DNA from: a virus
Lineage: Duplodnaviria > Caudoviricetes
Reading direction: 5' to 3' (one strand)
DNA: 24,604 bases
Virus record (IMG/VR): IMGVR_UViG_3300025131_009348
Coordinates: 1-24,604 of that record
Position numbers and translations under genes: made by a program. The notes under the pieces were generated by a model that was not told the DNA's origin, made no database searches, and saw only the letters and a program-made list of their open reading frames with translations. This document shows, piece by piece, positions 11,801 to 24,309 of the stretch. The number at the start of each line of letters is the position of its first letter. The first letter of the stretch is position 1.

Positions 11801-12969
11801 TGATAAAACTTCATAATGATTATTCTTGGAATGTCTTAAAGGAAATGAAAAAAAATTCCATTGACTCTATAGTAACTGACCCTCCTTATGGTTTAGGCTT
11901 TATGGGTAAGTCGTGGGATAAAGTCCTCCCTCCTCTTGAGGTATGGGAGGAATGTTATCGAGTGCTCAAGCCTGGAGGATTTCTTGTGGCCATGAGTGCA
12001 TCCAGGACATTCCATAGATTATCAGTACAAGTAGAGGACTTAGGATTTATTGTGCATCCTATGGTCGGCTGGATTTATGGCTCAGGATTTCCAAAGGCCA
12101 CAGACTTGTCTAAACAATTTGATAAGCAGGCAGGAGCCAAAAGAAAAGTAATAGGTAAAAAGGAATCTGGATGTTTTAGCTTAAAGGAGGAGTCTCGTCA
12201 TACGATCGGAGCAAGCATTGCCAAGGAGGTTGATATCACTGTTCCATCAACCTCCTTGGCAAAAAAATGGGACGGCTGGAAATATGGATTACAGGCACTC
12301 AAGCCAGCTCTCGAGCCTATAGGAGTATTTCAAAAACCTCCATTGTCCCCAATGACTAAAAATGTAAAAAAGTATGGAGTGGGAGCAATGAATATTGATG
12401 AGTGCAGAGTCAGTACCGATGGGAAAGATAAAGAGAGACATTTAAGAGAGTGGGATAGAGTCCAGTCTAAGCAAAAAAAAGAAGGAATGTTCGAAAAATT
12501 GGGTGAGATTGATTTAAATGATTATGTAAAAGATTATGTAAAAGATGGAAGGCATCCTGCTAACTTAATTCATGACGGCTGTATGGCAGGAGAGAATTTT
12601 AGATATTTTAATGCTACTCCTTTCTTGTATTGCCCTAAGCCCAGCAAGAATGAGAGGAATAAGGGATTAGATTTTTTTGACCTTAAGGAATCTAATTACG
12701 GTAAAAACTTTTCTGGATCCGATAAAGGTACAATAAGTAATTCCAAGCATCCTAATCAAAATAGTCATCCCACAGTCAAGCCGATTAAATTGATGGAATG
12801 GTTAATTAAATTAGTGACTCCTCCAGAAGGGATTGTATTGGACCCATTTTTAGGGTCAGGGACTACTGGAATAGCAGCTAAGCAGAATAGATACTCTTTT
12901 ATCGGTATAGAGAAAGATAAAGATTACTTTAAAATTGCTGAGGGAAGGATAAGCTCAATCCTTATTTAG
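11800..12969 (+). CDS. DNA N6-adenine/N4-cytosine methyltransferase (beta class)
   Basis: IVTDPPY catalytic motif near the N-terminus; HPTVKP and VLDPFLGSGTTG SAM-binding motif near the C-terminus. Confidence 0.95.
   Translation: MIKLHNDYSWNVLKEMKKNSIDSIVTDPPYGLGFMGKSWDKVLPPLEVWEECYRVLKPGGFLVAMSASRTFHRLSVQVEDLGFIVHPMVGWIYGSGFPKATDLSKQFDKQAGAKRKVIGKKESGCFSLKEESRHTIGASIAKEVDITVPSTSLAKKWDGWKYGLQALKPALEPIGVFQKPPLSPMTKNVKKYGVGAMNIDECRVSTDGKDKERHLREWDRVQSKQKKEGMFEKLGEIDLNDYVKDYVKDGRHPANLIHDGCMAGENFRYFNATPFLYCPKPSKNERNKGLDFFDLKESNYGKNFSGSDKGTISNSKHPNQNSHPTVKPIKLMEWLIKLVTPPEGIVLDPFLGSGTTGIAAKQNRYSFIGIEKDKDYFKIAEGRISSILI
12520..12546 (+). repeat. In-frame 12-bp tandem duplication (GATTATGTAAAA x2 + GAT; DYVKDYVKD)
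   Basis: Read directly from sequence. Confidence 0.9.
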
Positions 12970-13348
12970 TCACATCCCCAAAAGTAATATTATTGTTATT
13001 GGTAAAGTTAGCAGGCTTTCTGTTATCCTCTGCCTTTCTTAGGGATACATCCTCAGTAGGTCCAAAAGCAGTCACTCTCCCATCTTTGAATTTGACAGCA
13101 TACCAAACCTCTTTACGGTCAAAGAGAGTCAATCCAAAGGTGATAACATGGACCATAATATGATTCTCTTTAGGGACAGACATTCCGTAATTGTAGAGAA
13201 TGTATGGAGAGTCAGCAGATGTACTGTCTGGGTCTCCCAGCCTCTCAGTTACCTGGTCTTTGGTCATGCCTAAACTAATTTTATTTAGGTCTTTAGGGGT
13301 AGAGGCGCATGATACTGCCAGAAATAAAGATAAAATCAATACTTTCAT
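12962..13348 (-). CDS. BamE/SmpA-OmlA-like outer-membrane lipoprotein
   Basis: MKVLILSLFLAVSC lipobox; ISLGMTKDQV...LGDP motif; VKFKDGRV strand; GGAGGA RBS; the only credible minus-strand gene. Confidence 0.8.
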   Translation of the reverse strand: MKVLILSLFLAVSCASTPKDLNKISLGMTKDQVTERLGDPDSTSADSPYILYNYGMSVPKENHIMVHVITFGLTLFDRKEVWYAVKFKDGRVTAFGPTEDVSLRKAEDNRKPANFTNNNNITFGDVTK

Positions 13349-13669: not shown

Positions 13670-14210
13670 TTATTTTGTGAGCAATAAAGGGGATGTCTAT
13701 AGCCTTGGGTTTACAGCAGCTAAATCTAGGATTCTTAGGCCTGCTAAACTTAAAATAGGGTATTTGGCCGTAGTTCTATGGAGGGATGGGAAAAAGAGGA
13801 CATCCTATATTCATAAGCTTGTAGCTGAGGCATTCTTACCAAAGAGAGAGTGCAGACAAGTAGCCAATCATATTGATGGAGATAAGCTTAATAACTGCTT
13901 TGAAAATTTAGAATGGGTTAGCTATTCAGGGAATATATCCCACGCCTACTATCATGGATTAAGAAATAAAAGGGCCAAAATAACTGGGAAAGAATATACA
14001 ACTATAGATAGACTATTTTTTGAAGAAAATATGACCCCAAAAGAGATAGCAATAATTTACAATGTATCTGATACTACAGTAAGAGATGTCTTAAAAAGAA
14101 AGTTAAAAGGAAACCCTTTCCAAAGCCCACGATATATAGAATTAATACGCAATCGAATATTAGTCAGGAGGCAAAATGAACGACTTAGTAAACTCAGAAG
14201 TAAAAATTAA
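13629..14210 (+). CDS. NUMOD4-HNH homing endonuclease with C-terminal HTH
   Basis: EWRRI.EYPNYFVSNKGDV; HKLVAEAFL...NHIDGDKLNN..ENLEWVS...N; EIAIIYNVSDTTV. Confidence 0.92.
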   Translation: MKGLEWRRIREYPNYFVSNKGDVYSLGFTAAKSRILRPAKLKIGYLAVVLWRDGKKRTSYIHKLVAEAFLPKRECRQVANHIDGDKLNNCFENLEWVSYSGNISHAYYHGLRNKRAKITGKEYTTIDRLFFEENMTPKEIAIIYNVSDTTVRDVLKRKLKGNPFQSPRYIELIRNRILVRRQNERLSKLRSKN

Positions 14211-14988
14211 CTCAGCAATAGAAAAAGCCCTCATGGTCGGGGATTTATCTAAGTTAAATGAAGTGGATCGGCTAAGCTATTTTAAAAACATTTGTACCTC
14301 TTTGGGCCTTAATCCCCTTACAAAACCTTTCCAGTATATCACTCTCCAGGGCAAGCTCACATTATATGCGACTAAGGCCTGCACAGACCAGTTAAGGAAG
14401 CTTCATGGAATATCCATAGAGATAAAAAATCAAAAGGTTGAGAATGGCCTATTTACAGTCACAGTGGAGGCTACAGATAAGCATGGCAGGAAAGATAGTG
14501 ATTTGGGAGTCCTGCCTCTAGGCAATAAACAAGGAGATTATTTGGCCAATATAATTATGAAGACCGTCACTAAGGCCAAGAGAAGAGTGACCCTTTCTAT
14601 CTGTGGGCTCGGCATGCTAGATGAGTCTGAGATAGAGTCTATCCCCAGGAATCAAGTTGAGATAATAGACAACCCTAAAGAGATAGAGCCTCCCTCTCCA
14701 GAAGTTGAGGCATGTACAGGCAAGATATTGGAGCATCTAGGATTTCTAACTCAAGGTAAGAATATCCAGGAGAAAGGAGAGTTTTTGCAGTTATGGACGG
14801 GAGTCAAAAAAGCCAACGACCTAAAGACTAAATCTCTCAATGAGCTTAAAGGGATAGAAGAAGCAGTCTACAAGGAAGTCAAAAAGAAATGGGATGAGTC
14901 AGAAATAGAAGAAGAAAACCCAGATACAAATTCAATGAAAGGAAAGACAGCTAAAGACTGCACTTTTAAGCTGCCTGAGGAGGATTGA
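14176..14988 (+). CDS. Putative single-strand annealing recombinase (RecT/Red-beta-like)
   Basis: CTSLGLNPLTKPFQYI and IMKTVTKAKRRVTLSICGLG..DESE resemble Bet/RecT LNP and M..K.A...A..G.Y..EE motifs; AGGAGG RBS. Confidence 0.6.
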   Translation: MNDLVNSEVKINSAIEKALMVGDLSKLNEVDRLSYFKNICTSLGLNPLTKPFQYITLQGKLTLYATKACTDQLRKLHGISIEIKNQKVENGLFTVTVEATDKHGRKDSDLGVLPLGNKQGDYLANIIMKTVTKAKRRVTLSICGLGMLDESEIESIPRNQVEIIDNPKEIEPPSPEVEACTGKILEHLGFLTQGKNIQEKGEFLQLWTGVKKANDLKTKSLNELKGIEEAVYKEVKKKWDESEIEEENPDTNSMKGKTAKDCTFKLPEED

Positions 14989-16705: not shown

Positions 16706-17458
16706 GTGACTCCTTTCAAAAATAAGCATCAAAAAATCAAAATCCCAGAATTCATAGCTGTAGGAGATATAGCAGGAAGATTTGATGAGCTTATGAATCT
16801 TATCGAGAAAGCTCCAGATGTCCCATTAATCTCACTTGGAGATACAAATGATAGAGGTCCTAAATCTAAAGAGGTACATGAGTACCTAATGAGCAGAGAG
16901 GATTCATATACTATTTTTGGTAATCATGAGCATATGTTTTATGATTTTTACCGTCCTTTAGGCAGCCGAGGCTTTTATGATAGAGAGCTTTGGAAGGCCT
17001 TCAATGGAGGGATAAATACTCGCTGGTCTTATGGAGAAATGCCTTTCTATTTGAATGACTCTGGAGCTTTTGAAAAAGGCCCTATCGGAGTCGATATGGA
17101 AGCAGTAAATAAGACGCTGGATTGGTTTGAGACTCTCCCATGGATAATTGAGACAGAGGATTGCTATCTTTCCCATGCTGCTCTTTTCAAAGACCTATCA
17201 ATTGATAGATGCCTAAACGAGGGAAAGTGGGCAGGAGATAGTTACAGGATGGGTACATCAATTCTATGGAATTATCCTTCTTTTCCAAAAGAGAGAGAAA
17301 AATTTCAGATCCATGGACATCATGCAAATGATACTCCTGTCTGGTATGGAGAGAAAGATTCTAGATGGGGCGTGGATCTGGATACATCAAGAGCTGGAGT
17401 ACTTACTGGAATGCACTGGCCATCAAAAGAAATTTTCATATCTGAATATATCTCATAA
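16706..17458 (+). CDS. Calcineurin-like metallophosphoesterase (PPP family, lambda NinI/PrpA-like)
   Basis: GDIAG, GDTNDRGP, GNHE, SHA, HGH motifs; GTG start with GAGGT RBS. Confidence 0.9.
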   Translation: MTPFKNKHQKIKIPEFIAVGDIAGRFDELMNLIEKAPDVPLISLGDTNDRGPKSKEVHEYLMSREDSYTIFGNHEHMFYDFYRPLGSRGFYDRELWKAFNGGINTRWSYGEMPFYLNDSGAFEKGPIGVDMEAVNKTLDWFETLPWIIETEDCYLSHAALFKDLSIDRCLNEGKWAGDSYRMGTSILWNYPSFPKEREKFQIHGHHANDTPVWYGEKDSRWGVDLDTSRAGVLTGMHWPSKEIFISEYIS

Positions 17459-17526
17459 GGCCTATGCTTCGTGGCCTAAGATTTCTCTGGCCATCCAAAA
17501 ATAAATCCTTTTAAATCTTAGAAATT

Positions 17527-17562
17527 AAAAAAAAAGCCCCGACTCATAATCAGGGCTTTTTT
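17527..17562. terminator. Bidirectional intrinsic terminator-like hairpin
   Basis: A9-GCCC-13 nt-GGGC-T6; gives T6 on + and T9 on -. Confidence 0.75.
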
Positions 17563-17572
17563 GATATCTTTT

Positions 17573-17960
17573 ATGTGAGTGAAGCACAATAAAGATGGAC
17601 ATGAATACCCATCTATTTACCACTCACATTCAAGAAATCAAGCAAAATTTACTAGAAGAAAAGATTTAATAAAGGGCCTAGGGGGCAAGGGATACTGCCT
17701 ATAGGGAAGCAATGAGGCCCATGCGAACCTTACAATGTATCTGGCCGATGTGCGATGAGCGACAGGTATTGTCGTATTATAAACTGCGTATCGTTCGACC
17801 ACTCCAGAAGTCCACGGAAAGACTGCTGCGAAGCAGACAAGGAATGAGGGCATACACCCGTATAGGAGTGCGAGGAGACCAGCTCGTAGATAACAGGAAT
17901 AGCTTAAGGTTTGAAAAATTCAAACTGCTTTCCTAGGCTGGATGGCCTTCTATGCTCAAA
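17573..17960 (+). ncRNA. Candidate structured non-coding RNA / replication origin region
   Basis: Dense inverted repeats: ATGTGAGTG/CACTCACAT, AGATGG/CCATCT, GGGCCT/AGGCCC, CGACA/TGTCG, CTGCT-GCGA-AGCAG, GTTTGAA/TTCAAAC; no convincing ORF. Confidence 0.5.
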
Positions 17961-17987
17961 GCTCAAGGTATTGCGAGTAGTTAAGTA

Positions 17988-18017
17988 TTTACAAACGTAA
18001 TACAACCCATATATAAT
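17988..18017 (+). promoter_or_regulatory. Sigma70 promoter TTTACA-N18-TATAAT
   Basis: TTTACA 17988-17993, TATAAT 18012-18017; predicted TSS about 18023-18024. Confidence 0.7.
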
Positions 18018-18022
18018 GATTT

Positions 18023-18098
18023 TGAGAGGACAGCTCAATCGGTGAGAGCACTGGCCCCACCAGCTAGAGGTTTGTTGGTTCGAATCCAACCCTCTCAA
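18023..18098 (+). tRNA. Degenerate tRNA-like element (nominal anticodon CAC, non-canonical)
   Basis: Acceptor TGAGAGG/CCTCTCA, D arm GCTC-AATCGGTGA-GAGC, anticodon arm CTGGC-CCCACCA-GCTAG, T arm GTTGG-TTCGAAT-CCAAC; lacks U8, U33, purine 37 and CCA. Confidence 0.75.
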
Positions 18099-18119
18099 TA
18101 TTTCAAATGGAGAATTAAG

Positions 18120-18308
18120 ATGGGAATGGCACTTGCCAATAAAATTAAAACAAATCTCTGCAAAGTTAAGAAGAAGAAAAAGAAGAGGACTATTTCCACC
18201 AGAATAGATCCAGATGTCCTAGAGTCTCTTGATAAGAGATGTAAAAGGGATGGATTGATAAGATCTGCAGTAATTGAAGAGCTGGCCAGGGAATATGTAG
18301 CATCATAG
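18120..18308 (+). CDS. Ribbon-helix-helix (CopG/Arc-like) DNA-binding protein
   Basis: TISTRIDPDVLESLDKRCKRDGLIRSAVIEELAREY; GGAG RBS before ATG 18120 (the 18042 start runs through the tRNA-like element). Confidence 0.85.
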   Translation: MGMALANKIKTNLCKVKKKKKKRTISTRIDPDVLESLDKRCKRDGLIRSAVIEELAREYVAS

Positions 18309-18545: not shown

Positions 18546-18669
18546 TGAAAATGTAATGCAGGCCTGGATTCTTCTGGGCCTCTTAATTTTAATATATACA
18601 TTCCATAATCTTAAACGTAATATTTTCCAGAATGACAAATCAAACCCTTTTGGAGGCCGCAATGATTAA
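18538..18669 (+). CDS. Small single-TM protein (43 aa)
   Basis: MTDENVMQAWILLGLLILIYTFHNLKRNIFQNDKSNPFGGRND; fills the gap and overlaps both neighbours. Confidence 0.55.
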   Translation: MTDENVMQAWILLGLLILIYTFHNLKRNIFQNDKSNPFGGRND

Positions 18670-19123
18670 CAGCTTAGTCAGTATTATTTCTATCCTATTC
18701 CTAGTCTTAGCTCTAGGAGGATGCGCTTCTAAAGCTAAACAAGTTGACATGGAGAATATTGGTATGGAAAAGAAGCTCAAAGAAGATCCCGAGACAATTG
18801 GAATGATATTCTTCTCTACAGGAGATTCTGAAGTCCATGAAAGATTCATATACACGCTAAGGAATGCCATTGATGCTGCGAAAGCTAACCCACATGTAAT
18901 TATCAGTTTGGTCGGACATAGTGATGCTAGAGGAGATACTCCTCTCAATTATAAGCTATCAGAAGACAGAGCAGTAAGCGTAAGGGGAAAACTCATGAAC
19001 ATGGGCCTAGAATCCCACAGGATTGAAATTAACAGCATAGGCAACGCTATTCCACTAGATCCAGGTCAAGGACATTCTCCATGGGCAAGGAATAGGAGAG
19101 TAGATATCAGGATCAAGTACTAA
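18662..19123 (+). CDS. OmpA-family (Pal-like) peptidoglycan-binding lipoprotein
   Basis: GGAGG RBS before ATG 18662; lipobox LGGC; GHSDARG...N..LS..RA..V and NRRVDI motifs. Confidence 0.92.
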   Translation: MINSLVSIISILFLVLALGGCASKAKQVDMENIGMEKKLKEDPETIGMIFFSTGDSEVHERFIYTLRNAIDAAKANPHVIISLVGHSDARGDTPLNYKLSEDRAVSVRGKLMNMGLESHRIEINSIGNAIPLDPGQGHSPWARNRRVDIRIKY

Positions 19124-20165: not shown

Positions 20166-20500
20166 TGTCTTTTTATAATTACTGTATTGAAAATAACCTG
20201 AGGGCCTTACATGCTATTGGATCTCCTACTCTTAAGCACATGGAGAGACTTTATATTGCAAAAGAGTCTGAGCTAGGACAAAAGGCCCAGGAGATATATC
20301 AACTAAAAGAAGAGATTGAAGATTTGAAAAGGGAGAGAGATGGATTATTACGAGATGCTAGGAATAGCGAAAGATGCGACCCAGAAGGAGATAAAAGCAG
20401 CTTACCGGAAATTGTCGAAGATCCATCATCCAGACAAGGATGGGAGCCCGAAAGTGATGGGACAGGTAAACGAAGCTTACCGGATACTCTCAGATTCTAA
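20165..20500 (+). CDS. Hypothetical coiled-coil protein overlapping the J-domain gene
   Basis: ATG 20165 coupled to upstream TAA; heptad segment EIYQLKEEIEDLKRERDGL. Confidence 0.6.
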   Translation: MSFYNYCIENNLRALHAIGSPTLKHMERLYIAKESELGQKAQEIYQLKEEIEDLKRERDGLLRDARNSERCDPEGDKSSLPEIVEDPSSRQGWEPESDGTGKRSLPDTLRF

Positions 20501-20951
20501 AAAGAGAAAAGATTACGATGACGGCAAGCCTGAAGAGGTAGAGGAAAATAAGGCAAGAGGTCTTGTCATGAAAGTCTTCTCAGATGTCTACCCTAAATTT
20601 ATTGAGGATCCTAAAAAGAATAATATCTTAAAGATGGTTAGAGAATTGCTTATGGACCAGGTGACTAGAGCGATAGAAGGGATAGAAGCGTCAAATAAAA
20701 TGATAGAAAATACTGAGGAGAGTTTAAAAAGGCTCGAAGATTCTCCTTTACTGGAGGGCGCTCTCCAAACCACAATAAACCAATTGAATAATGAGAAAAT
20801 CCGCTGGGATGAGGACAAGGAAGAGGCCGAGGAGGCATTGGGATTGATTGAGGATGGAAAATATAAGATAGACAGAGAGGCTTCTCTATCTGACTTCGGT
20901 GCGCAAGACAGTCAGGTAAGGGGAGGAGTGTTTGGAAAGAGGTATTTCTAA
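20340..20951 (+). CDS. J-domain (DnaJ-like) protein with helical C-terminal domain
   Basis: DYYEMLGI..DAT..EIKAAYRKLSKIHHPDK...VNEAYRILSD..KRKDYD. Confidence 0.95.
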   Translation: MDYYEMLGIAKDATQKEIKAAYRKLSKIHHPDKDGSPKVMGQVNEAYRILSDSKKRKDYDDGKPEEVEENKARGLVMKVFSDVYPKFIEDPKKNNILKMVRELLMDQVTRAIEGIEASNKMIENTEESLKRLEDSPLLEGALQTTINQLNNEKIRWDEDKEEAEEALGLIEDGKYKIDREASLSDFGAQDSQVRGGVFGKRYF

Positions 20952-22565: not shown

Positions 22566-22666
22566 GTGATTTATACAAGTTTTTTATTGAATTCTGGCAA
22601 GTACATGTAGGACTAAGTCTTATTGCAGCAGGGTCATTCTTAATCTCAATATGGATATCTAAATAG
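22562..22666 (+). CDS. Small membrane protein (34 aa)
   Basis: GGAGGG RBS; MSDLYKFFIEFWQVHVGLSLIAAGSFLISIWISK; TAGTG coupling. Confidence 0.6.
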   Translation: MSDLYKFFIEFWQVHVGLSLIAAGSFLISIWISK

Positions 22667-23082
22667 TGGAAGTAGAGCTAGGGAAGAGATTAATTTGGGT
22701 CAGGGAGCGCCTCTCTTTGAATTTAAAGGAAGTTAGTGACGGAGTCGACATCCCTTTGACTACTTATTGGAATAGGGAGAATGGAAGGCCATCAAGGAAA
22801 GGAGCATCTCTAGAGATTTTTAAGATACTCAGATTTTATTCTCGGTTATGGGCCCATAAATTTAAAGTCCATTTTCCAGTTTATGACGGAGAAGAAGTTA
22901 AGGAGATTAATGCAGAGTTTATTTTATTCGGTAAGAGTGCTACACTGAGCAATGCAAGCAAATACATAGAATTGATCGAAGAAGATTTTAGGGCCAGGGA
23001 GATTGAGTATGTTAACTATATTCAAGAATTAGAGGCAAAACTGTATGGGAAGGAAGAAAGAGAAAGGGCCAGCAGTAGTTAA
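22666..23082 (+). CDS. XRE-family HTH transcriptional regulator
   Basis: LGKRLIWVRERLSLNLKEVSDGVDIPLTTYWNRENG...INAEFILFG. Confidence 0.8.
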   Translation: MEVELGKRLIWVRERLSLNLKEVSDGVDIPLTTYWNRENGRPSRKGASLEIFKILRFYSRLWAHKFKVHFPVYDGEEVKEINAEFILFGKSATLSNASKYIELIEEDFRAREIEYVNYIQELEAKLYGKEERERASSS

Positions 23083-23434
23083 TTGGGACAAGCTCGAAGC
23101 ATACTGCCAATATGACATAAGTTTGAGGACAGCAGCATCTATGCTGGATATGAGCTATGATACTCTCCGCAGAAGAATCCTGGAAAAATATAATATCTCT
23201 TGGGGCGATTATAAAAAGCAATTTCTTGACCAAATGGCATTCAGGCTCAAGAATAAAGCATTAACTATGGCACTCTCTGGAGATAGGACTATGCTAATAT
23301 TCAGCCTTAAGAATATGGCAGGCTGGTCTGACAAAACAGAGACTACGCATAAGGCAGAAAGCATCGAAGATTTAGTACAAAAATCAAAGCAAGAAGATAA
23401 AAAACCTAAACTTATCCAGGGAGGAAAAAAATGA
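23045..23434 (+). CDS. terS: Terminase small subunit (HTH type)
   Basis: MGRKK, HTH (AASMLDMSYDTLRRR), ALSGDRTMLIFSLKNMAGWSDK typical of TerS. Confidence 0.75.
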   Translation: MGRKKEKGPAVVNWDKLEAYCQYDISLRTAASMLDMSYDTLRRRILEKYNISWGDYKKQFLDQMAFRLKNKALTMALSGDRTMLIFSLKNMAGWSDKTETTHKAESIEDLVQKSKQEDKKPKLIQGGKK

Positions 23435-24309
23435 ATCTTAGTCAAATGAAGGAAATTGCCAGGTCTAACGGAATTGAATTCCATAATAATGCCACGGCAA
23501 AAAAAATGAGGGAGGTACTTGAGGAGCATAATATCCCTATACCTGAGACAGATTTGATTAATGAGAAAGTAAATAATTACAGTGATAATATCCCTCCTGC
23601 AGGAGAGGCAGGAATGGATATGGACAGTGGTCATATATCTGGAGGAATTATCCCTGAGCACCATCCAGAAAATTATAACCCGAATGCAGACACAGTAGAG
23701 ATGGACTTCGATGAGGAAGAGGATGACGATGATTATGTAGATCCATCTTACCAAGTAAGGCCTGCTAGACAGAAAAATGGGCTCATGGAAAAATTCAAGT
23801 GGTTTATGAAGCAATATAGGGAAGTGACTAGAAGAAAAAAAGACCCTATGAGAGAGGCAAATCTCAATATCCTCCATAAGGAAAAGGAAGTTATTAAAGC
23901 AAAGGCCATCAAGCAAGGTAACTCTCAAGTTTACAGGAAAATGCTTGAATGGGAGAGGTCTAGAAGGCTAATTAAAGTCGTGGATGAGTATGCTCTAAAT
24001 GAGATGGAGTCTGCAGAAATTAATGATATCTGTGTATGCTTCAATCAAATGGTATCTGGTCGAAAAGTAAAATTGGGCCAAGAATGTAGATATCGATATT
24101 ATTTTGATGATAGCAGGCAGGATGACGTCTATATGGTCTACGTTGAGAGGACTATAGAGCCAGAGGAGCAGATAGCTCCGACTTTAGAGAGAAAGCTTAG
24201 AATGGGATTTGTCCCTGAGCCAAAAGACTATGCTGAGCCTAAGACTCTCATTCATAGCTTTACTTTGGTAGCCACAGAGTTTGATAGACATTTTAAAATC
24301 CAGGATTAG
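23431..24309 (+). CDS. Hypothetical protein with N-terminal HeH/SAP-like motif and acidic linker
   Basis: GGAGG RBS, ATGA overlap; LSQMKEIARSNGI....ATAKKMREVL; DFDEEEDDDDY. Confidence 0.8.
   Translation: MNLSQMKEIARSNGIEFHNNATAKKMREVLEEHNIPIPETDLINEKVNNYSDNIPPAGEAGMDMDSGHISGGIIPEHHPENYNPNADTVEMDFDEEEDDDDYVDPSYQVRPARQKNGLMEKFKWFMKQYREVTRRKKDPMREANLNILHKEKEVIKAKAIKQGNSQVYRKMLEWERSRRLIKVVDEYALNEMESAEINDICVCFNQMVSGRKVKLGQECRYRYYFDDSRQDDVYMVYVERTIEPEEQIAPTLERKLRMGFVPEPKDYAEPKTLIHSFTLVATEFDRHFKIQD

Follow-up and report, generated by a model that had tools for sequence, protein, structure and literature searches.

Non-coding phage elements sharing a covarying base-paired core, tentatively proposed as RNA-based replication origins unrelated to ColE1

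The non-coding block at 17459-18020 of the window (by which we mean the whole 24.6-kb stretch of DNA analysed here, from a tailed phage seen in marine metagenomes) belongs to a small family of elements, so far uncatalogued, that occur in non-coding DNA of phages and have in common a covarying base-paired core. Our best explanation, to which we give a probability of roughly 0.45, is that these elements are a new family of RNA-based, initiator-free origins of replication unrelated to ColE1; origins of this kind are already known, and it is the family of elements that is new. Support for a Rep-less RNA-based origin is circumstantial, coming from conservation among the homologues, covariation and genomic position. 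A preliminary description of the block had likened it to a ColE1-type origin and offered a novel ncRNA as the alternative. The likeness to ColE1 was not borne out; the block is nevertheless a real uncatalogued non-coding element with no Rfam match and five divergent copies, one in the window and four in distant contigs that are phage or phage-like. The features of the block and its flanks are as follows.

16706-17458, plus strand: upstream gene, NinI-like metallophosphatase (Pfam PF00149, phrog_246)
17489-17497, plus strand: 5' arm of a long-range inverted repeat, pairing with 17939-17947
17522-17645, minus strand: candidate antisense RNA of ~120 nt, a long hairpin (UUCA apical loop) plus terminator
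17527-17562, minus strand: intrinsic terminator-like hairpin with a U9 tail (on the plus strand, U6 and a C-A mismatch)
17561-17590, plus strand: weak sigma70-like promoter, TTGATA-18-CACAAT, 9/12
17674-17720, plus strand: GGG...CCC stem
17800-17870, plus strand: conserved three-way-junction core, from covariation in five copies
17894-17936, plus strand: variable hairpin between core and 3' block, predicted in all five copies
17939-17971, plus strand: conserved 3' block GGATGG..CT..TA..AAA.CTCAAGGTAT, containing the 3' arm of the long-range repeat
17988-18017, plus strand: strong sigma70-like promoter, 11/12, for the downstream tRNA and ribbon-helix-helix (RHH) gene; right end of the element
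18022-18099, plus strand: degenerate tRNA, called Val, anticodon CAC; a neighbour outside the conserved element
18120-18308, plus strand: RHH (CopG-like) gene (PF01402)

Identification of five divergent copies

An alignment of capsid proteins gave 21 viral loci, three of them the window phage or near-identical to it, and one genome locus. A blastn search with the block found no homologue in 17 records, but among nine gaps inspected there was one, from G012 (a complete genome), that matched the block in a 15-mer at all but one base and in words downstream of it. When this gap was aligned to the block the z-scores were 3.1-3.4 (1, 4 and 7 of 500 shuffles). Viral contigs scanned with a pattern yielded 15 loci, namely the window phage, G012, new non-coding copies in G023 and G024, and 11 matches within coding DNA that are due to chance, while the metagenome pattern scan returned seven, comprising two repeats, one new copy (L263) and four chance matches. 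The distinct copies number five (window, G012, G023, G024 and L263) and are about equally divergent, at 55-61% in a lenient global alignment. Leave-one-out HMMs recovered each copy with E-values of 2e-5 to 5e-12, a test that is not fully independent as the core had served as search pattern. By inspection, the terminase and portal of G023 are unlike those of the window's family, and for this reason the element likely moves between phage lineages.

A scan with a 15-mer near the 3' end of the block gave nine loci, eight of them by chance. Scans with the two half-cores gave 120 and 62 loci in 128 distinct contexts, 108 of which lay in stop-free frames of at least 130 codons; neither the 20 contexts outside those frames nor an HMM search of all loci yielded a new member, and weak model matches at L151, L044:14061-14131 and L269 were set aside as lying within coding DNA. 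In 401 genomes from the phylum of G022 the pattern matched once, by chance, and blastn of the homologues and of the block against plasmids and phages gave chance-level matches only (for the block, pieces of 30-56 bases). Searches with the neighbouring proteins led to the same phage only, and contigs from sequencing runs carried no variant letters within the element.

The Rfam comparison called for in the preliminary description found no known family for the element in the window (E≤1) or in the four homologues (E≤5); the only above-threshold matches in the window were two tRNAs, and three sub-threshold matches were to the terminator hairpin. Covariance models for RNase P, tmRNA, group I and II introns, ribozymes, riboswitches, GOLLD and ROOL gave no match. 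Likenesses by eye to RNase P, the group I intron, tmRNA, the hammerhead and the TPP riboswitch were rejected, with key pairings and Rfam matches missing in each. Consistent with an uncatalogued motif, the core word did not occur in the full-text literature searched, and six supplementary files of PMC10690425 were without a match; three further files of that paper may hold the motif.

A covarying three-way junction

The core has the order AGAAG-UCCAnGGAUGGA-AUGA inside a covarying helix, H1, and its small stem is invariant. In the window H1 is formed by 6 bp between 17800-17805 and 17865-17870 and encloses AGAAG, the small stem, AUGA and a hairpin at 17848-17859, and 21 nt are inserted in the window core, containing a hairpin with a GCGA loop (17823-17836). 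Covariation in homologues had been proposed as a check, and it was found: over the five copies 28 of the 30 cells of H1 are paired, with pairs 1-4 varying while pairing is kept (two to three pair types each), pair 5 invariant and pair 6 holding two C-A cells. With the 3' strand anchored on a CG motif picked post hoc, when the copies had already been seen, no other of the 120 orders of the 3' strands paired as well as the true one, shuffling of columns gave P 5e-5, and slid registers left only 12-14 cells paired. We counted these pairs by coordinate, the automatic covariance model (R1) having a shifted register that came from a poor MAFFT alignment. H1 is ambiguous on its own as to strand, having two C-A cells when read on plus and one when read on minus, and folding z-scores of the core were significant in none of the five copies. 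The core, of ~65 nt, is compact, and its unpaired residues are invariant and its peripheral hairpins variable.

Hairpins, promoter-like sites and the 3' block

The hairpins and words listed in the preliminary description are all present where it placed them, i.e., the A9-hairpin-T6 at 17527-17562, the long hairpin (full arms 17561-17581/17621-17641), the GGGCCT (17674)/AGGCCC (17715) stem with G5 at 17681, GCGAAC at 17723, GACAGGTAT at 17761, the GCGA hairpin, AGGAGTGCG at 17864 and ATGCTC at 17952. The whole block folds better than its shuffles (z -4.0, 0 of 100 as good), which is due to the 5' hairpins; for 17670-17945 alone z was -1.2, with 24 of 200 shuffles as good.

The region 17522-17645 folds to -46.1 kcal/mol on the minus strand (z -7.5) vs -35.4 kcal/mol on the plus strand (z -6.1). 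Together with the U9 end and the lack of a minus-strand gene for 4 kb to the left, the minus-strand fold suggests a putative antisense RNA, for which we found no clear promoter in the window. The antisense fold is the better one in three of the five copies, and the module is strong only in the window, being weak or absent elsewhere.

On the plus strand, inspection by eye places a GGG...CCC hairpin 125-170 nt ahead of the core in each of the five copies. The weak promoter-like site of the window has same-strand counterparts 170-290 nt before the core in L263 (10/12), G012 (11/12) and G024 (9/12) and none in G023, so that four of the five copies have such a site upstream, where chance would supply about one per region. 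The upstream parts are common pairwise, L263 with G012 and G023 with G024. We think it likely that the element is transcribed on the plus strand into an RNA of roughly 400 nt, and read-through from the operon of the metallophosphatase gene could supply a long transcript.

A strict pattern for the 3' block, set after the copies had been seen, occurs in three of the five copies vs 2 of 1806 background windows, and looser blocks are found in G012 and G024. This block is a candidate primer end. Equivalents of its long-range partner, some 300 nt ahead of the core, form 10 bp in L257 and 12 bp in L263, the latter including changed pairs; in the three copies with the pairing, which are those with the strict 3' block, 4, 0 and 0 of 100 random windows were as good, and G012 and G024 have no clear partner. 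Because the partner lies upstream of the promoter-like site or overlaps it, and in the window also lies beyond the terminator hairpin, it need not share an RNA with the core.

The CopG-like gene had been cited as consistent with an origin. It does not belong to the conserved unit, as it has its own promoter at 17988-18017 and the other four copies precede different genes; G024 likewise has a promoter 3' of the element, and the genes on that side differ in every copy (tRNA/RHH, HNH, DUF3268-like, loader-like, and one without assignment). The tRNA behind the strong promoter of the window has C at positions 8 and 33 and an acceptor-stem mismatch, and may be a decoy or a pseudogene; none of the other four copies has a tRNA beside it.

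Comparison with ColE1

The alignment to ColE1 with shuffled controls that had been suggested gave results at chance or marginal level. In local alignments of the block to the ColE1 reference (NC_001371) under four scoring schemes, with 300 shuffles each, z was 0.54, 1.66, 2.16 and 0.73, and 97, 22, 8 and 72 of the 300 shuffles reached the score. Spacings also differ, GCGAAC and GACAGGTAT being 79 nt apart in ColE1 vs 38 nt in the window, and GACAGGTAT and AGGAGAGCG 32 nt vs 103 nt. ColE1 has two G6 tracts, one in the middle stem-loop and a second just before the origin; G6 runs lie at 928 and 1175 of NC_001371, whereas the window block has only the G5 at 17681 and all five copies of the element lack a G6 run. 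One word ascribed to ColE1 in the preliminary description, CACTTCAAGAACTC, is absent from the NC_001371 record. The ColE1-like words GCGAAC, ATGCTC, AGGAGTGCG and the CAAGAA word are kept in none of the four homologues, and GACAGGTAT occurs with one mismatch in two of the four, at other places. The window has no match to Rfam RNAI at E≤1, and the predicted antisense fold is one long hairpin plus terminator, vs the three stem-loops of ColE1-family RNA I. Among 72,556 plasmid records none matched over more than 6% of the query, the family HMM and CM do not match ColE1, and the conserved core is absent there.

The proposed resemblance to the ColE1 family is thus not supported by alignment scores, spacings, RNA I, the G6 runs or the fate of the words in homologues. 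A diverged RNA II/RNA I origin captured by a phage, for which the short words in the same order, the 5' A-run hairpin and the one lenient scoring scheme (z 2.2) might be cited, is largely refuted and very improbable given the missing plasmid and RNAI matches, family models that miss ColE1, the absence of the core from it, and words lost in the four homologues. What the element has in common with ColE1/pMB1 RNA II, whose primer and RNA I mechanism is outlined in PMC12966454 and PMC3035462, is that an initiator protein appears to be missing, that the structured non-coding sequence is several hundred nt long, and, in the window copy only, that a minus-strand hairpin-terminator lies at the 5' end. 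It differs in having no significant sequence similarity, RNAI match, G6 tracts or Rop, in its other conserved core, and in being found in phages, not plasmids.

Genomic position and replication genes

All five copies lie in the early-to-late stretch. In the window, G012, G023 and G024 the element sits between the early genes and the terminase, on the late strand; the L263 contig is not long enough for a terminase to be seen. In the matching stretch of capsid relatives, G005 has an O-like initiator (phrog_345, E 2e-23), G019 an initiator (E 0.001-0.002) and a DnaB-like helicase, G009 a helicase and a RepB primase, and L042 a DUF5906 helicase-like gene, and the element is absent from all four.

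The preliminary description had remarked on missing replication genes, which a 24.6-kb window could not show, and none were detected in the whole unit either. The window is identical to positions 10,682-35,285 of G001 (40,127 bp, rated 100% complete), the first 127 bases of which are repeated at 35,159, indicating a circular unit of ~35.2 kb. We scanned 52 proteins of this genome against PHROGs and 40 against Pfam and detected no polymerase, primase, helicase, initiator or integrase, a scan that a very diverged initiator could escape. The matches obtained were to terminases, portal, capsid and internal virion proteins, and to two HNH nucleases, methylases, a ParB-like protein, RusA, the NinI-like phosphatase, RHH, and OmpA and DnaJ domains. 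G012 also had no replication gene among the proteins scanned, so neither of the two complete carriers of the element has a detected one. Scans of relatives covered accessory-region proteins of ~110 aa or more and some shorter ones (90, 23 and 46 proteins); two complete relatives, G006 and G018, have neither the element nor a detected replication gene, and G021 is an incomplete relative. Mutual exclusivity of element and initiator over eight genomes (a 2/0/4/2 table) was not significant (p 0.21, calculated by hand). Of the gaps in the two relatives lacking both, that of G018 (L050:2378-3132, 755 bp) has short direct repeats of a GGGACA word and is possibly another type of origin, and that of G006 (L044:14170-14677, 508 bp) is hairpin-rich and unrelated to the element core.

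In L263 the element ends 10-20 nt before an ORF of 188 aa. The annotated Atlas clusters nearest to this ORF (score 0.93) have G39P_N or lambda P in 10-15% of their members. It had no Pfam or PHROG match, its only listed homologue was itself, tblastn in phage records found none, the best Foldseek E-value was 0.055 on a pLDDT-59 model, and BLAST showed no similarity to the loader-like ORF of G005. A G39P/lambda P-type helicase loader is a lead only. The gene order O-P is typical of lambdoid phages, and the element with its loader-like ORF in L263 recalls the initiator-loader pair of G005.

Proposed function and alternatives

Several features of the RNA-based class are found here, i.e., no detected initiator in the window unit or G012, and an ORF-free, conserved, structured region behind a promoter-like site in four of the five copies (9/12 in the window). 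As an origin, the element would act as follows. Host RNA polymerase would transcribe through it, and the plus-strand RNA of roughly 400 nt would serve in place of the usual initiator gene: once folded, it would stay bound to the template through its 3' part, forming an R-loop close to the conserved 3' block. One-way synthesis would then be begun by RNase H and Pol I of the host or, in phages that encode one, by a helicase loader. The window copy would have priming damped by the ~120-nt antisense RNA, whose end is at the U9 terminator, much as RNA I acts in ColE1. The element would thus work like the origins of ColE1, the MRB plasmids or phage c2 without descent from ColE1. Four-fold-site skew has no flip at the element, and skew cannot separate origin types. 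A more specific version, which we regard as unlikely though attractive, is that RNA-primed origins of a further family, evolved independently, come and go in the lambdoid initiator slot of different phage lineages, and that in at least one of these the fork passes to a phage helicase loader of the P/G39P type, an RNA thus standing in for protein O. Replication genes are not seen in many small uncultivated phages, and a conserved RNA element alternating with initiator modules would explain how some of these replicate. If the elements are origins, they would add an independent family, with a ~500-bp replicon, to the few RNA-based origins known, and the coupling of such an origin to a helicase loader of the phage would, if true, be a new pairing; even otherwise the core is an uncatalogued structured RNA motif with covariation.

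The element might instead be a cis-acting leader RNA, such as an HK022 put-like antiterminator, an attenuator or a riboswitch, that controls the delayed-early and late genes downstream. It is always on the strand of those genes, behind a promoter-like site in four of five copies, and in G012, G023 and L263 the distance from the 3' block to the next ribosome-binding site and gene is at most ~10-45 nt; alternative pairings of that block could act as a switch. HK022 put RNA is ~70 nt long and promoter-proximal. We consider a leader unlikely, given downstream genes that differ in every copy, the separate promoter after the element in the window and G024, and the lack of a terminator directly after the core. 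Quite unlikely, too, is a trans-acting non-coding RNA or ribozyme, with the three-way junction and its invariant purine-rich joiners as a catalytic or protein-binding core. It would fit the compactness of the core, in which unpaired residues are invariant and peripheral hairpins vary; a tRNA follows the element in the window, and the GA/G-C/GA arrangement recalls a hammerhead core. However, the hammerhead CUGA is missing, there is no Rfam match to a ribozyme or large ncRNA at E≤1 (window) or E≤5 (four homologues), the other four copies have no adjacent tRNA, and the constant position in the replication stretch would be left unexplained.

An origin-associated signal that acts as single-stranded DNA, e.g., a primosome or primase assembly site or a single-strand origin, would account for the covariation and G-T pairs as well as RNA does, and the long-range partner lies outside the predicted transcript. 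The window insert moreover contains a GCGAAGC mini-hairpin, which is very stable in DNA. Against such a signal stand the promoter-like sites at similar distance in four of five copies and the lack of a detected rolling-circle initiator to expose a single strand, and we judge it improbable. That the block is ordinary intergenic DNA with a terminator and promoters, or a 74-codon ORF (17712-17936), and has no special function is scarcely credible: the ORF does exist and the core folds no better than shuffles, but a covarying core conserved in five unrelated contexts refutes this unless the homologues are artefacts, and the ORF has no family match and no same-strand counterpart of at least 60 codons over the core in the other copies.

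Other RNA-based origins

If the preferred reading as an RNA-based origin is right, three further systems invite comparison. The origin of phage c2 (a Lactococcus Ceduovirus), with its PE1-T transcript, is described in PMC7150918 as supporting replication without phage proteins, and as there presented it likewise belongs to a tailed phage, is non-coding, and is bounded by two promoters where the early genes meet the late ones. It differs in that no DNA match was found in 50,697 phage records, that the present family has a covarying junction, and that an origin role is here only predicted. Cluster A mycobacteriophages have, in the account of PMC7157519, non-RepA RNA-based prophage origins beside a parABS cassette; shared with these are an integrase-less phage and an RNA-expressing region that alternates with a protein initiator among relatives, while in the window phage a ParB-like gene beside a methylase is all that is seen of such a cassette, ParA being absent, and there is no DNA match. 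The MRB plasmid origins of Vibrionaceae, as characterized in PMC3035462, are marine and RNA-based, and MRB/PAGEV resembles the element in its ORF-free ~500 bp, an inverted repeat flanked by A and T runs, and a two-stem-loop antisense RNA, for which the window has a candidate. There is, however, no plasmid match, neither the window nor the four homologues match Rfam PAGEV or Vibrionaceae plasmid origins, and the antisense module is here strong in the window only.

Other observations on the window phage

Past one genome length, G001 (C1:35159-40127, L007) contains a diverged second copy of the terminase region, and this record likely joins two strains. One relative of the window phage is in a Myxococcales bin, where it may be misbinned. 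A 270-aa protein (14176-14988) has more than 7,400 homologues and no Pfam or PHROG match; its gene sits among the early genes, where relatives carry RecT-like, ERF or AAA_24 annealing proteins, the last of which we take to be Sak4-like. Host-like envelope and chaperone genes lie at 1-459, 12962-13348, 18632-19123 and 20340-20951, the types being an O-antigen ligase-like membrane protein (in 10 of 12 records), a BamE-like lipoprotein, an OmpA domain and a DnaJ domain. An HTH protein (22666-23082), which may be a late regulator, and a 292-aa protein without assignment (23431-24309), both encoded next to the terminase genes, are conserved there in 9 of the 12 records compared.
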